From assembly GCA_017396145.1 (NCBI GenBank), contig JAFQMS010000017.1, positions 491 through 64,490 on the forward strand: DNA of 64,000 nucleotides, in the 5' to 3' direction. Position numbers and translations under genes: made by a program. Below, piece after piece: positions 11,637 through 20,940 of this stretch (positions are counted from its first letter, which is position 1; each line of letters opens with the position of its first letter). This DNA is from Lachnospiraceae bacterium. Lineage in GTDB: Bacteria > Bacillota > Clostridia > Lachnospirales > Lachnospiraceae. The notes under the pieces were generated by a model. That model saw only the letters and a list, made by a program, of their open reading frames with translations. It was not told the origin of the DNA and ran no database searches.

Positions 11637-12861
11637 TAAATTATTAGAAGAGGTAACTAATCTTTGTGATGCACTGTTAATTCCATGGTTTGTATCAGGG
11701 CGAAGTGCAGCGAAAGCGTATATGGGAGATATGTACCAGAGGGGGACTTTTGATGTTGAAATTACAATTTGCGCCAAAGATGTGCCTAGATTTATTGAGG
11801 CTTGCGAAGGAAGAAAAGGTCGTTTTTTAGAGGGGTACCATAATAATTCTGATTTCTTTGGGCTTTATATGAAGTATGTTGATACAACTACAACATTAAT
11901 TGATTATAATGAGGGATTTTCGAGTTCTGTAAGGGGAATGTATATCAAAATTAATATATTAAGGAGTGTTCCAACAGATAAAAGCAACGAAAAAAAGTGT
12001 CTTAAGTATGAGTATCTGATAGAAGATACGTCAAAGGCGTATTGTGGAATGTCAGGAAAAACTTCGTTGCTACAAAGAAACTTTTTTAGGTTTGTTAAAA
12101 TAATAAGTAGAAATCATAATAAGAAACTGTTTTTTAAGTTAATTAAAAGATATAGTAGTACGAACGCTTCACAAGTTTTATTACGTACTGCAGATGGACA
12201 GATGCATTACTTTGAAAAAGATAGATTTTTAAATCTTTCAATTGTTGAAGTAGAAAATAGACCTTTATGGCTTCCTGAGAATCCAGAGGAATTCTTTGTA
12301 GAATGCTATGGAGAAAAATGGGATGAATACGTTTTAGAAAAGACAAAAGAAGGAAGACCGGCGGATGTATTGTATAGTAGTGCTTATTTCTTGAGTAGTT
12401 TGACTATACCATATCATTTGGTTGTCGAAGAAATGAAAAAAGTTGGCGTTAATAAGACTTTTTTCAAGAGGTTGCATAGAATGGAAAAAATAGCTACTGA
12501 AGATAAAGCGTTTATGATTCCTATAAATAATGCATGGAACAATGCAAACAGGGCTGGAGATTTGTGGAACATAGACGAGTATTATAAAGAAAGAAAAGAA
12601 ACAATAAAATACCTGTATGAGATTGGGGAATTAAATAAGTTAGTTGAACAGTACAAATATTATGATGAAATCGTGAAGAAAAACATGGCTAATAATATGG
12701 GATTTAAATATGATGATGAATTGTGGGAAATATATTTAGAGGTTAAGGCAGTTACAGAAAATGAGGAAGTAGCACAAAGTATAAGTTCTTTGGCTAATGA
12801 AGATAGACAGTTACAAATATTATTGAGAAATATGGAGCGTATTTTAAATGAAAGTATCTGA
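11611..12861 (+). CDS. Divergent LicD-related protein
   Basis: The N-terminal layout matches LicD (LLEEVTNLCDALLIPWFVSGRSAAKAY...GTFDVEITI), but the DDD-x-D motif is replaced by FDVE. The ATG at 11611 follows AGAGGA and overlaps the upstream gene end by 26 nt. Confidence 0.5.
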   Translation: MNKYQKRINKLLEEVTNLCDALLIPWFVSGRSAAKAYMGDMYQRGTFDVEITICAKDVPRFIEACEGRKGRFLEGYHNNSDFFGLYMKYVDTTTTLIDYNEGFSSSVRGMYIKINILRSVPTDKSNEKKCLKYEYLIEDTSKAYCGMSGKTSLLQRNFFRFVKIISRNHNKKLFFKLIKRYSSTNASQVLLRTADGQMHYFEKDRFLNLSIVEVENRPLWLPENPEEFFVECYGEKWDEYVLEKTKEGRPADVLYSSAYFLSSLTIPYHLVVEEMKKVGVNKTFFKRLHRMEKIATEDKAFMIPINNAWNNANRAGDLWNIDEYYKERKETIKYLYEIGELNKLVEQYKYYDEIVKKNMANNMGFKYDDELWEIYLEVKAVTENEEVAQSISSLANEDRQLQILLRNMERILNESI

Positions 12862-14554
12862 TTATATAGTTGATTTTCTTGAAAAAAAAGGTGTTAAACA
12901 TGCATACGGATATCAAGGAACAATGATAGCGCATTTGGTTGAATCTATTGGAAAGTCCAAGATAGAGAATCATTGTGTATATAATGAACAAGCTGCGGCT
13001 TTTGCCGCTGTTGGTGCTGCAAAGGCCACAGGGAAGTGTGCATTCGCATATGCTACAAGTGGTCCGGGAGCGATTAATTTAGTCTCAGGAATAGCTGATG
13101 CCTATTACGATTCGGTTCCTGTGCTATTTATCACGGGACAAGTTAATACTACAGAATATACAGGCATTTCACAGTTAAGACAACAGGCTTTTCAGGAAAC
13201 GAAGGTTGTTTCCATAGTTAAAGATATTTGCAAGTATACATCGTTTGTACAGACTCCTGAGAGTATTGTAGAAGAAATAAATAAAGCATGGGAGATAGCT
13301 AATACGGGGAGAAAAGGGCCAGTAGTTCTAGATATCCCTATGAATGTGCAAAGAGCAGATATAGATGTTGCACAAGTACAACAAGAAACAATACAGGAAG
13401 AGATTTCACAAGATACTATAGATATAATATTAAATGAATTAAATGCTTCAAAAAGACCGGTTTTTGTTCTTGGCAATGGTGTTGGGAAGGATTGTACATC
13501 AAGAAATAGAGTAAAGGAATTAATTAAACGTTACAGAGTTCCGGTTATCACAACTTTATTAGGAAAAGATTTGATTGACACAGACGACGAGTTAAATATG
13601 GGGGCTTTAGGGGCTGCATACGGTCATCGTTGTGCAAATCTAATTGCATATGAAAAAGCAGATTTAATTATAAGTTTTGGCGCTAGTCTTTGTAGAAGAC
13701 AAACGGGAGGAAACACAAAAGAATTTGCCAAGAATGCCAAAATAATAAGAATAGATATAGATTCTAATGAACTTCTTAGAACATTACATGATGAGATACA
13801 TGTGCCATATGATGTTAACAGCATTATTGAAGAGATTTTAAGTGTTGATGGCTCTTATGAGTGTAAAGAATGGTTGGAGAAATGTAAATATATAAAAAAG
13901 AAATACGAAGAATTTGACAATGGTTGTGAAGGAAGAGAGCCTAATAAGATTATTGATGAAATTACTTCTAGATTAGAGAACAATATAGTAGTAAGTGATG
14001 TCGGACAACATATGATGTGGGTTATGCAATCGGCTCATGTAAAAAATACTAGACTTTTGTTTTCAGGTGGACATGGCGCTATGGGATTTGCATTACCAGC
14101 TGCAATTGGGGCACAGATTGAGACAGGTAAACCAACTATGTGCATAGCAGGAGACGGTGCATTCCAGATGAATATTCAGGAATTGCAATGGGTGTTTAGA
14201 GAAAAGATACCTCTATGTATGGTTGTTTTTAATAATTCATCATTAGGATTAATACGTCAGCAGCAGGATGATTTTTTTAATTCTTATTACGTGGGATCAA
14301 CATCGGAAGGAGGATATCTTTCCCCAGATTTCAAGAAGGTGGCTGAAGCTTATAATATTACCAGTTTTAAAGTTGAAAGTATAAGTGAATTAAAAAGCAT
14401 AGTTTCAAATGCGAATATGGATGAGCCGTTATTAATTGAATATGTTTTAGAACCGACAACTGTTGCTATACCTAAAACATATTTTGGCGAAACAATGGTA
14501 AATCAAAGACCTTATGTAGATAATGAGATACTAGAGGATATAAAAGATATTTAA
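12848..14554 (+). CDS. Thiamine-diphosphate-dependent enzyme, acetolactate-synthase-like three-domain type
   Basis: ThDP motif GDGAFQMNIQELQ-x-NN (GDG, 24 residues, NN). The N-terminal Pyr domain contains YGYQG...SGPGAINL. The start overlaps the upstream gene by 14 nt. Confidence 0.85.
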   Translation: MKVSDYIVDFLEKKGVKHAYGYQGTMIAHLVESIGKSKIENHCVYNEQAAAFAAVGAAKATGKCAFAYATSGPGAINLVSGIADAYYDSVPVLFITGQVNTTEYTGISQLRQQAFQETKVVSIVKDICKYTSFVQTPESIVEEINKAWEIANTGRKGPVVLDIPMNVQRADIDVAQVQQETIQEEISQDTIDIILNELNASKRPVFVLGNGVGKDCTSRNRVKELIKRYRVPVITTLLGKDLIDTDDELNMGALGAAYGHRCANLIAYEKADLIISFGASLCRRQTGGNTKEFAKNAKIIRIDIDSNELLRTLHDEIHVPYDVNSIIEEILSVDGSYECKEWLEKCKYIKKKYEEFDNGCEGREPNKIIDEITSRLENNIVVSDVGQHMMWVMQSAHVKNTRLLFSGGHGAMGFALPAAIGAQIETGKPTMCIAGDGAFQMNIQELQWVFREKIPLCMVVFNNSSLGLIRQQQDDFFNSYYVGSTSEGGYLSPDFKKVAEAYNITSFKVESISELKSIVSNANMDEPLLIEYVLEPTTVAIPKTYFGETMVNQRPYVDNEILEDIKDI

Positions 14555-19350: not shown

Positions 19351-20940
19351 ATGAGTAATTTTAAGATTCTTGATTGTACATTAAGGGACGGAGGTTATGT
19401 TAACGACTGGAACTTTGGAAAAAAAACAGTAGTAAAAGTATTATGTGGTCTTGCAAATGCAGGGATTGATATTGTTGAGATTGGTTTTTTATCAGAGTGT
19501 CAGTATGATAAGAATAAAACTGTTTTTAACAGCATTTCACAAATTGATGAATTACTACCTAATCAGAGTTCATGTAAATATGTGCTGATGATTGCCTTAG
19601 GGGAGAAGGAAATCGCATGCGAGAACGTGCCTTTAAGAAATGGTGGGCCTATATGGGGAATAAGACTAACATTTCATAAGAATGAAATAAAAAGAGCCTT
19701 TGAATATGCGAGTGATTTGATGGACAAGGGATATGTGGTATTTATGCAGCCCATTGGAACGGTAGCGTATAAAGAAGATGAGTTTTTACACTTGATAGAA
19801 AAAATTAATTGTTTAAAACCGTATGCGTTTTCTATAGTGGATACTTTAGGAAATATTACTGCAAACGAGCTTATTAGGTTGTTTCGTATGGCAGATAAAA
19901 ACCTTGTAGAAGGGATTAGAATAGGTTTTCATGCACATAATAATCTTCAACTTGCGTTTTCAAATGCTCAAGAACTGATTAATGAGCATTCAGATAGAGA
20001 GGTTATTATAGATTCTTCTATTATTGGAATGGGAAGAGGAGCAGGTAATTTGTGTACAGAACTGATTGCCAGATACATGAATACCAAGTTAAAATCTAAT
20101 TATAATGTTACTGCTTTACTTGAGGTTATAGATAAATACCTTATAAGTATTCAGACGGAATTTACATGGGGATATTCAGTGCCATATTATATTTCTGCCG
20201 TAAATAATTGTCATCCCAATTATGCAACTTATCTTATGAATCTTCAAACTGTAAATGTGTCAGATATTGAAAAAGTAATTGGGATGATACCAGTGGAAGA
20301 AAGAACTGTATTTAATAAAAAGTGCATCGAAAACCTATATAAAGAGTATCAGTCACATTATGTAGACGATAAGGAAACAGTGTTTAAATTAAAAGGAATG
20401 TTTAAGGACAAAAATATGTTAATCCTTGCACCGGGAAGGACATTGGTTACTGAATCTGAGAAGATTTATAAATACATTGAAGAGAAAAAACCGTATATTA
20501 TAAGTATTAACTTTGTTAATGAAGAATATCCGATAAATGCAGTGTTTATTAGTAATCTTAAAAGATTTGATCTAATGGAGTTTGATGTGGAAGAAGAAAA
20601 GGAGTTAATAATTACGTCAAACATAGATGTTGCATTCTCAAGACAAGCGCATAAAATTAACTATTTAGATTACTTATGTAGCGATAGTAGAATAGCTGAT
20701 AATTCGGGAATGATGCTTATGTCATTGTTGCGAAAATGCGGGATTAAAAACGTTGTACTGGCAGGATTTGATGGATTCAAAGCGTCGTATAGAGATGATT
20801 ATTTTGAGAGAGGTTTTAATTTGAATGTAGAGACGGATGCATTATTAACAAAGACAAGACTTATTGGGGAACAGATAGAGATGTTTGGTAAAGACATGAA
20901 TATTCAGTTTTTAACTACATCCCAGTATGCAAAGAATTGA
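19351..20940 (+). CDS. HMGL-like (DRE-TIM) aldolase domain fused to an MptE/DUF115-like domain
   Basis: N-terminus has ILDCTLRDGGY and GFHAHNNLQLA (metal ligands of the pyruvate aldolase / carboxyltransferase fold). The C-terminal part (MLILAPGRTL...VVLAGFDGF) resembles MptE-like/Maf domains; that assignment is weaker. Confidence 0.75.
   Translation: MSNFKILDCTLRDGGYVNDWNFGKKTVVKVLCGLANAGIDIVEIGFLSECQYDKNKTVFNSISQIDELLPNQSSCKYVLMIALGEKEIACENVPLRNGGPIWGIRLTFHKNEIKRAFEYASDLMDKGYVVFMQPIGTVAYKEDEFLHLIEKINCLKPYAFSIVDTLGNITANELIRLFRMADKNLVEGIRIGFHAHNNLQLAFSNAQELINEHSDREVIIDSSIIGMGRGAGNLCTELIARYMNTKLKSNYNVTALLEVIDKYLISIQTEFTWGYSVPYYISAVNNCHPNYATYLMNLQTVNVSDIEKVIGMIPVEERTVFNKKCIENLYKEYQSHYVDDKETVFKLKGMFKDKNMLILAPGRTLVTESEKIYKYIEEKKPYIISINFVNEEYPINAVFISNLKRFDLMEFDVEEEKELIITSNIDVAFSRQAHKINYLDYLCSDSRIADNSGMMLMSLLRKCGIKNVVLAGFDGFKASYRDDYFERGFNLNVETDALLTKTRLIGEQIEMFGKDMNIQFLTTSQYAKN

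Follow-up and report, generated by a model that had tools for sequence, protein, structure and literature searches.

A probable wall-polymer operon in a Lachnospiraceae bacterium pairs a YerE-like ThDP enzyme with a TagD-like cytidylyltransferase fusion

Genes at the locus and their occurrence in strains

We analyzed a 64,000-nt stretch of DNA from a Lachnospiraceae bacterium (GCA_017396145.1, contig JAFQMS010000017.1, positions 491 to 64,490; hereafter, the window), in which eight co-directional genes at 9327 to 20940 probably direct the synthesis of an undescribed cytidine diphosphate (CDP)-activated phospho-alcohol for a wall polymer. Their products include a thiamine diphosphate (ThDP)-dependent enzyme, a TagD-like cytidylyltransferase (CT) fused to a degenerate Gfo/Idh/MocA-like (GFO) domain, a short-chain dehydrogenase/reductase (SDR), and an aldolase (Table 1). 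The original prediction had placed these four enzyme types together, and this was borne out by the open reading frames (ORFs) and Pfam matches: each ORF has exactly the predicted coordinates, and the motifs quoted for it can be read in its translation. Absent from that account were the fusion to the CT, the genes at 16667–17554 and 17579–19303 between the SDR and aldolase genes, the upstream pair of LicD genes, and the C-terminal domain of the aldolase.

The window is low-GC DNA (32% to 38%). Neighboring genes of the eight either overlap or lie ≤47 bp apart and, judged by this layout, likely form one operon between a promoter-like site and a terminator-like hairpin. Promoter-like sites in the region do not, in total, exceed the number in shuffled sequence, and the one at 9242–9269 is the sole perfect match.

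Near-identical copies of the window were found in goat, sheep, and other gut metagenomes, with the runs containing its sequence being exclusively DNA metagenomes. Contigs from four independent runs (goat, sheep, and gut metagenomes) cover positions 4500 to 22500 evenly, and two other metagenome scaffolds repeat the gene order; the cluster is therefore one inherited block within the species, and the co-location of its genes is no assembly accident. Contigs of several runs also diverge into unrelated sequence at gene borders within the operon (14150–14600, 16435–16770, and 20160), which suggests that strains with mosaic versions of the cluster coexist.

Table 1. Features of the operon and its neighbors (coordinates are those of the window)
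Feature	Coordinates	Strand	Basis or remark
Promoter-like site, TTGACA-16-TATAAT, 12/12 consensus	9242–9269	+	5′ of first LicD gene; consensus match only
LicD-family phosphotransferase, 769 aa, long C-terminal extension	9327–11636	+	Pfam LicD, E = 1e-36; DDDAD
Second, divergent LicD-like protein, 422 aa	11593–12861	+	Pfam LicD, E = 7e-7
YerE-like ThDP-dependent carboligase (predicted), 568 aa	12848–14554	+	TPP_enzyme_N, M, and C domains
TagD-like CT fused to degenerate GFO domain, 429 aa	14566–15855	+	CTP_transf_like and weak GFO_IDH_MocA
Classical SDR, FabG-like	15903–16637	+	adh_short, E = 8e-37
295-aa protein, remotely polysialyltransferase-like (PF07388)	16667–17554	+	BLAST to L103 genes
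GT2 glycosyltransferase, 574 aa, uncharacterized C-terminal half	17579–19303	+	Glycos_transf_2, E = 2e-21
DRE-TIM (HMGL-like) aldolase with conserved alpha/beta C-terminal domain, 529 aa	19351–20940	+	HMGL-like, E = 1e-19
Intrinsic-terminator-like hairpin, 10-bp stem with 6 GC pairs, then T run	20968–20994	+	Closes operon
1110-aa protein with N-terminal FkbH/HAD-IIIC domain	5750–9082	−	TIGR01686, weak HAD Pfam matches; divergent from operon
ABC-2 type transporter, ATPase and permease	2066–4460	+	Near operon

The ThDP enzyme and its partner, the cytidylyltransferase fusion

The ThDP enzyme has the three-domain fold of its family, with the cofactor motif GDG-x24-NN readable in IAGDGAFQMNIQELQWVFREKIPLCMVVFNN. 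It falls under every NCBIfam cut-off for acetohydroxyacid synthase (AHAS; e.g., TIGR00118, 397 bits versus 538), and among PDB entries it ranks 5ahk first (313 bits), followed by E. coli AHAS I (265 bits) and plant AHAS (249 bits). Its GDG…NN motif and NEQ glutamate align with those of 5ahk, and the two proteins have in common a 6-residue insertion after GQV (GQVNTTEYTGISQLRQQAFQE in the ThDP enzyme and GQVNTHELKGKRDIRQQGFQE in 5ahk; pattern GQVNTxExxGxxxxRQQxFQE) that is missing from both AHAS sequences, as well as an RQTG motif where AHAS has DRVTG. The acceptor-site Trp of AHAS (W574 in A. thaliana) is a Gln in the ThDP enzyme, and no ilvN- or ilvH-like ORF for an AHAS small subunit was found near the gene among the ORFs and Pfam matches. 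Although 5ahk was deposited under the name “acetolactate synthase II,” we take it to be the P. protegens YerE (PpYerE) of the biocatalysis literature, because V479, a residue discussed for PpYerE (PMC12247030), falls on the Val of GMVRG at chain position 499 when a 20-residue tag is counted.

We placed the enzyme relative to AHAS and YerE in a neighbor-joining tree of 29 sequences, whose references were one YerE (PpYerE) and two AHAS. The clade of the window enzyme received 100% bootstrap support, and its union with a ThDP enzyme from a Bacilli metagenome-assembled genome (MAG; L010), whose gene is flanked there by sugar-nucleotide genes for an epimerase and DegT, received 98%. PpYerE was the next to join (78%), with the two AHAS outside. 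The PDB ranking, the common insertion and RQTG motif, the tree, and the failed AHAS cut-offs thus indicate that the ThDP enzyme belongs to the ketone-accepting, YerE-like carboligase subclass and is not an AHAS. Its predicted chemistry would be the ligation of an acyl group derived from a 2-oxo acid to a ketone, giving a tertiary alcohol.

The same data bear on a more ordinary explanation, i.e., that these are central-metabolism genes for an ilvB-type acetolactate synthase, a leuA-type synthase, and FabG. The top NCBIfam names would fit (acetolactate synthase; 4-hydroxy-2-oxovalerate aldolase or isopropylmalate synthase; FabG), but the bit scores lie far under the curated cut-offs for the aldolase (72 versus 229 for the 4-hydroxy-2-oxovalerate aldolase family) and for the SDR (147 versus 238 for FabG, with no NCBIfam equivalog cut-off reached) as they do for the ThDP enzyme. 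Moreover, neither an AHAS small subunit nor a LeuA dimer domain was found, the latter by Pfam, the genes sit among those for LicD and GT2 proteins, and the tree joins the ThDP enzyme to YerE. Neither the cut-offs nor the tree revealed a tight clustering with ilvB or leuA, and we consider this explanation effectively refuted and most improbable. A phosphonate route of the PepM/Ppd/PntC kind was also rejected, as no PEP (phosphoenolpyruvate) mutase domain was found in the window and the ThDP enzyme is a three-domain, AHAS/YerE-like protein.

Directly downstream, the CT domain comprises the first 126 residues of the fusion and resembles TagD/TarD over its full length: it is 53% identical to B. 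subtilis TagD, it contains the HxGH and RTxxISST motifs (as HQGH and RTKNISST), and it keeps the basic pair at positions 44/46 (R44/K46). It scores 118.8 bits on TIGR01518 versus a cut-off of 165.4. Unlike TagD/TarD, it has Trp74 of TagD replaced and is followed by a pseudo-oxidoreductase domain of ~300 residues, the GFO domain, with a weak match to GFO_IDH_MocA (28 bits). This domain reads GLVVDS at the GxGxxG position and CGMQ at the EKP position, and both losses run through the whole clade of fusions associated with ThDP enzymes. Fusions of this degenerate group share GIVTDDxxDN where the intact group has GIVGTGRIA, and the 55 other fusions keep GTGRIA and CEKP. By its motifs, therefore, the GFO domain appears to have lost NAD(P) binding and catalysis. 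DWWN and GxGxRY motifs are conserved in the degenerate domain, because of which we take it to be still in use; the pattern suggests that it keeps a role, most simply ligand binding. Fusions with intact motifs presumably handle a pair of CDP-linked or phosphorylated carbonyl and alcohol, and it fits the pathway proposed below that the ThDP-associated clade gave up the redox step while retaining the domain. If this is correct, the fusion would be a clear case of a pseudo-enzyme domain retained inside a biosynthetic protein.

To follow the fusion across genomes, we scanned species-representative genomes for it, which gave more than 588 relatives, and analyzed 85 loci along with the window. In every examined context where it could be identified, the gene 3′ of a ThDP homologue (50% to 80% identity) encoded a CT-GFO fusion. 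A YerE-like ThDP gene (44% to 54% identity) lay within reach in 23 of 31 loci with a degenerate GFO domain, whereas none was found in the 55 loci with an intact one, five of which have a distant ThDP gene (29% to 30% identity). A CT-GFO fusion without GxGxxG and EKP is thus a bioinformatic marker that predicts a neighboring YerE-like gene. The degenerate group usually adds an SDR, a long LicD protein, and a short divergent LicD protein, with the SDR and both LicD genes co-traveling in Blautia wexlerae, B. schinkii, B. luti, Mogibacterium, and others, and the core itself is shared by Blautia, Ruminococcus, Mogibacterium, and further gut anaerobes. In Ruminococcus, the loci consist of the ThDP gene, the CT-GFO gene, and a gene for a Wzy_C-like membrane protein; from these three-gene loci, the irreducible pair is the ThDP enzyme and the CT fused to a degenerate GFO domain. 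Comparison of gene neighborhoods therefore points to a core, conserved across genera, of the ThDP enzyme and the CT–degenerate GFO fusion, usually accompanied by an SDR and two LicD proteins.

This coupling weighs on a reading in which two unrelated pathways share the locus, with the ThDP enzyme and SDR making a yersiniose-type branched deoxyhexose from a nucleoside diphosphate (NDP)-4-keto-6-deoxyhexose supplied from elsewhere in the genome, a GT2 protein inserting it, and the CT making CDP-glycerol for LicD. Such a division would agree with the nearest neighbors of the ThDP enzyme, i.e., PpYerE and the L010 enzyme flanked by epimerase and DegT genes, with the closeness of the CT to TagD, and with the presence of GT2 genes. 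However, it gives no reason for the restriction of the ThDP gene to the degenerate-GFO clade, and the three-gene Ruminococcus loci argue for a direct functional link. Deoxyhexose genes were, moreover, found neither in the window nor in the Blautia loci inspected. We therefore regard two separate pathways as unlikely.

Homologues of the SDR, which carries the motifs TGGTDGIG and YSLSK, occur at 47% to 50% identity in 16 ThDP-containing loci, and a contig with a ThDP enzyme 80% identical to that of the window (L103) encodes an SDR with 74% identity; by analogy with YerF, the SDR is a candidate side-chain ketoreductase. The first LicD protein scores 127.5 bits and has an acidic DxD-type motif (DDDAD), and the modules of Blautia and other genera come with homologues of it (33% to 37% identity). 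The second scores 30 bits, reads FDVE, and is 24% identical to the first; its activity is uncertain because of this divergence, and its gene co-occurs with that of the ThDP enzyme in 11 genome loci as well as in L103 and a further metagenomic relative (L104). In one scaffold (L001:5699–6926), the short LicD-like gene was called as two ORFs (214 and 198 aa) and may be disrupted in some strains. For the 295-aa protein, no Pfam or NCBIfam match was found; it is 37% identical by BLAST to an L103 protein labeled unk333 and shares 22% identity across 366 aligned columns (E = 5e-18) with the product of an L103 gene with a weak Pfam A-2_8-polyST (polysialyltransferase) flag. The GT2 protein of the window is 52% identical to its L103 counterpart.

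The scan also delineated occurrences beyond this module. Loci with an intact GFO domain (e.g., L078:3259–13226, L047:9060–14223, L048:2315–8881, and L071:7241–12607) form a separate, larger module with a second GFO gene (often GDPD-fused), xylose-isomerase-like TIM barrels, and LicD or TagF-like genes; a CDP-polyol or cyclitol may be what this module processes. Degenerate-GFO CT fusions with LicD were also found in gut methanogen MAGs (L029, L031, and L057; Methanobrevibacter and “archaeon”), with no ThDP gene found within reach in these three, which suggests either transfer between bacteria and archaea or binning errors.

The aldolase and its contexts

The aldolase displays the motifs DCTLRDGG and HAHNN, and its R12, D13, H194, and H196 are invariant in 43 homologues, so that the DRE-TIM barrel is present with its Asp and His-x-His metal ligands (D13, H194, and H196). 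The best PDB match was 3dxi, the N-terminal domain of a putative Bacteroides aldolase (E = 2e-31). A structure model of the full-length protein (pLDDT 88) retrieved only TIM-barrel relatives in Foldseek, with matches to 1nvm, 4lrs, and 4jn6 (DmpG/BphI-type); the acylating acetaldehyde dehydrogenase partner was not found in the operon. The conserved C-terminal extra domain (~190 aa, alpha/beta) gave a probability of 6% in a profile comparison with an MptE-like protein, with motifs that align suggestively, and, when modeled separately, weak Foldseek matches to SteA (E ~2e-3, TM 0.44 to 0.49), so its predicted fold weakly resembles the SteA or MptE type. Four of the five listed strain single-nucleotide polymorphisms in the gene are at third codon positions, and the gene thus appears to be intact and under purifying selection.

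In contrast to the genes of the core, the aldolase gene is rarely part of the module. The four genes singled out by the original prediction had been suggested as a possible unit of inheritance, which holds for those of the ThDP enzyme, CT, and SDR and fails for that of the aldolase: it occurs in only three of the 85 fusion-containing loci, never adjoining a YerE-like gene, and was not found in the ThDP/CT/SDR loci of the other genera examined. In L103, polysialyltransferase-like and GT2 genes follow the SDR gene, and no aldolase gene was found before the contig ends. Given the three of 85 loci and its absence from the sequenced part of L103, the aldolase is a lineage-specific addition.

Outside the species, seven of eight aldolase contexts have an overlapping CTP_transf_3 (KdsB/NeuA-family) gene on the 5′ side and a HAD hydrolase gene on the 3′ side, and genes for MptE-like or polysialyltransferase-like proteins and for a GT2 protein of ~580 aa (GT2-580) adjoin. 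Neither partner type was found anywhere in the window, where tblastn with CTP_transf_3, HAD, polysialyltransferase, and MptE homologues matched only the GT2 gene and the aldolase gene itself. Gene context therefore points to an aldolase outside the conserved core that was recruited in this lineage without its CTP_transf_3 and HAD partners. The only other partner-less copy (L071) lies directly 3′ of an acetolactate synthase-like ThDP gene, and this pair sits between a DegT gene and one for an epimerase-family reductase. The complete aldolase–CTP_transf_3–HAD sets (L092 to L102, L048:8885–13044, and L075:17003–21308, including one in Bacillus genome GCA_002128425) suggest, by analogy, an undescribed route by which Firmicutes would make a CMP-activated 3-deoxy-ulosonic acid with a pyruvate aldolase. 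They resemble KdsA/KdsC/KdsB synthesis of CMP-ulosonic acids in joining a condensing enzyme with CTP_transf_3 and HAD proteins near sialyltransferase-like genes and differ from it in that the condensing enzyme has a DRE-TIM pyruvate aldolase fold instead of being KdsA or NeuB; in the window, both partner genes are missing.

These contexts raise the possibility that the aldolase works independently of the ThDP module and makes a sugar of the 3-deoxy-2-ulosonic acid type for the polysialyltransferase-like and GT2 proteins, with the partner genes elsewhere in the genome. In keeping with it, the 295-aa protein is remotely polysialyltransferase-like, and the GT2 protein of the window is homologous to GT2-580, with 24% identity over 451 aa to the one that accompanies the aldolase triad in L092. 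Yet the partner genes overlap the aldolase gene elsewhere, which suggests an obligate coupling, no gene of either partner type was found in the window, and the L071 copy, also without partners, likewise adjoins a ThDP gene. As an account of the aldolase only, independence thus appears doubtful, though it deserves to be kept in view.

A different role was assigned by the first reading of the original prediction, in which the aldolase joins pyruvate and an aldehyde phosphate into a 4-hydroxy-2-oxo acid phosphate. Decarboxylation of this compound would be all that the ThDP enzyme does, leaving an aldehyde for the SDR to reduce and a polyol phosphate for the CT to activate. All four genes do lie within one operon, the aldolase gene is apparently under purifying selection, and the usual HAD phosphatase and CMP-type cytidylyltransferase are missing, so that the phosphate could be retained and another activating enzyme used. 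Still, the aldolase gene is absent from the orthologous modules of all other genera examined and from the sequenced part of the L103 contig, and the three-domain ThDP enzyme is a carboligase of the AHAS/YerE type as opposed to the Ppd, pyruvate decarboxylase, or sulfopyruvate decarboxylase type. This order of steps has accordingly found little support, and we hold it to be quite improbable.

A proposed route to a wall-polymer phospho-alcohol

We give about even weight to the proposal that the operon makes a teichoic-acid-like wall glycopolymer whose phospho-alcohol unit is built with chemistry borrowed from branched-sugar biosynthesis. The teichoic-acid-like context is proposed because the module lies amid TarI/TarJ-like genes and TagF-like polymerase genes in L104, is preceded by genes for a Bac_transf priming enzyme, a GT2 protein, and an acyltransferase in B. 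wexlerae, and has an ABC-2 transporter nearby in the window, which, from its context, is a possible polymer exporter. Starting from the observed family assignments, gene coupling, motif losses, and operon structure, we infer substrates, an order of steps, and a product as follows. First, the ThDP enzyme would decarboxylate a 2-oxo acid, in most lineages pyruvate. The acyl anion would then be ligated either to a small CDP-linked ketone, e.g., CDP-dihydroxyacetone made by the CT domain from dihydroxyacetone phosphate, or to a triose phosphate prior to activation, in which case pyruvate and glyceraldehyde 3-phosphate would give a 1-deoxy-pentulose phosphate. Next, the SDR would reduce the new side-chain ketone in a YerF-like manner, and the product would be a CDP-activated branched or 1-deoxy C5-type polyol phosphate, with the dead GFO domain probably binding a CDP-linked or phosphorylated intermediate. 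Finally, the two LicD proteins would attach the phospho-alcohol through a phosphodiester to a glycan that the GT2 and polysialyltransferase-like proteins assemble. This transfer resembles the addition of ribitol phosphate by paired enzymes of the LicD family in other systems.

The least certain step is that of the aldolase, which may provide the ThDP enzyme with a longer donor, a 4-hydroxy-2-oxo acid, in the way that ErwI supplies ErwE; even granting the rest of the scheme, we rate this somewhat below an even chance.

Several findings weigh against the proposed route. Characterized YerE-type enzymes act on CDP-3,6-dideoxy-4-keto-hexose, and genes for a hexose-1-phosphate cytidylyltransferase, a 4,6-dehydratase, and DegT/E1 (or E3) were not found in the window, so that the acceptor assigned to the ThDP enzyme is a guess. 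The substrate for which TagD is specific, glycerol-3-phosphate, lacks a carbonyl, and an active oxidase that would create one on it is not encoded. At the level of gene content, the Ruminococcus loci have neither an SDR nor LicD, eight of the 31 degenerate-GFO loci have no ThDP gene within reach (some of these contigs are short), and orthologues of the ThDP enzyme occur without any aldolase. The reference set of the tree, with one YerE and two AHAS, is small. Finally, a literature search of incomplete coverage yielded no activity, product, or polymer structure for any member, nor did it return a description of the module among work on LicD with ThDP enzymes and cytidylyltransferases, Blautia wall polymers, or Firmicutes YerE-like enzymes.

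Two sets of precedents can be set beside the proposed route. A published scheme for the biosynthesis of erwiniose starts with ErwI, an aldolase of the BphI type that makes 4-hydroxy-2-oxopentanoate. The YerE-like ErwE decarboxylates this acid and ligates the product to CDP-3,6-dideoxy-4-keto-glucose, and ErwF reduces the side chain; analogous sets of aldolase, ThDP enzyme, and reductase have been proposed for caryophyllose, gastriose, and a Rhodopseudomonas sugar (PMC9306805). The view in the original prediction that no such pathway was known for wall polymers thus needs correcting, with the qualification that the activating enzyme and transferases of the window differ from those of the erwiniose, caryophyllose, and gastriose scheme and that the window lacks deoxyhexose genes. 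Like YerE/YerF and ErwI-ErwE-ErwF (yersiniose A, erwiniose, caryophyllose, and gastriose; PMC9306805, PMC12247030), the operon encodes a carboligase of the YerE subclass followed by an NAD(P)H reductase, and the cluster includes an activating enzyme for a cytidine nucleotide. A gene with the DRE-TIM pyruvate aldolase fold is present as in the Erw scheme, and the logic would be the same, in that decarboxylation of a 2-oxo acid donor would be followed by its ligation to a carbonyl and then by reduction of the side-chain ketone. Unlike these systems, the window has no genes for CDP-glucose or CDP-3,6-dideoxy-4-keto-hexose, a defining feature in which it departs from a classical YerE system; its CT is TagD-like and fused to a dead Gfo/Idh/MocA domain; its transferases are LicD phosphotransferases, not glycosyltransferases for a branched unit; and its aldolase lacks an acetaldehyde dehydrogenase partner and carries an additional C-terminal domain. 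The hosts differ as well, being gut Firmicutes for the module as opposed to Proteobacteria and mycobacteria.

The second set comprises CDP-alditol routes, in which cytidylylation of a ketose phosphate precedes reduction of the resulting CDP-ketose (Mnp1/Mnp2 and HS5.18/HS5.17; PMC10918830). In these pathways (TarI/TarJ, AbpA/AbpB, Mnp1/Mnp2, and C. jejuni HS5.18/HS5.17; PMC10918830), as in the proposed one, CTP serves to activate a phosphorylated C3–C6 unit, an NAD(P)H enzyme reduces a keto group, and the unit is passed on as a phosphodiester; L104 even has TarI/TarJ-like genes beside the module. They draw the ketose phosphate from central metabolism and employ IspD-type cytidylyltransferases and extended-SDR or medium-chain dehydrogenase/reductase enzymes, while the window adds a ThDP carboligase, a TagD-type CT, and a classical SDR. 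By analogy, then, the operon would combine both precedents, with a branching pair of the YerE/YerF kind added to a phospho-alcohol pathway of the TagD/LicD kind. The second reading of the original prediction, in which a CDP-linked keto intermediate receives a YerE-type branch, is supported in kind by the grouping of the ThDP enzyme with PpYerE, the reductase that follows, and the tight coupling to the CT, the substrates being our own conjecture.

Extended beyond the window, the proposal would be that gut anaerobes (Blautia, Ruminococcus bromii-like species, relatives, and possibly Methanobrevibacter) build or decorate a wall polymer with an undescribed polyol phosphate, C-branched or 1-deoxy and C5 or longer. 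A ThDP enzyme would form it by ligating a 2-oxo acid to a carbonyl at the triose level, a TagD-like enzyme whose dead oxidoreductase domain handles the substrate would CDP-activate it, and LicD enzymes would install it. We advance this generalization tentatively and consider it rather less than evenly balanced. If it is true, YerE-type C–C branching extends beyond the deoxyhexoses of Gram-negative and mycobacterial lipopolysaccharides and builds phospho-alcohol units of teichoic-acid-like polymers in common gut commensals, which would then display a new wall-polymer building block and possible antigen, phage receptor, or immune ligand. Cultured strains suited to a test of the prediction include Blautia wexlerae MSK.20.46, B. 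schinkii MSK.6.26, and B. luti.

Among the neighbors of the operon, the gene for the 1110-aa protein accompanies it in all strains sampled. The protein scores 144.6 bits on TIGR01686 versus a cut-off of 146.65, and no family was detectable in ~800 further residues, no homologue was found in the 85 related loci, and a structure search returned no informative relative. This FkbH-like protein is a possible member of the operon’s system. Further downstream, at 21778–24172 on the (−) strand, a pyruvate formate-lyase is split into a 702-aa core ORF with an unusual tail (22064–24172) and a separate 78-aa ORF (21778–22014) that bears the glycyl-radical motif RVSGYAV, and the same split was called in scaffolds L001 and L002. 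A Tad/type IV pilus-like cluster at 34428–42950 on the (+) strand encodes a prepilin peptidase, a T2SSE ATPase, T2SSF proteins, a DUF5702 protein, and a TadE-like protein.

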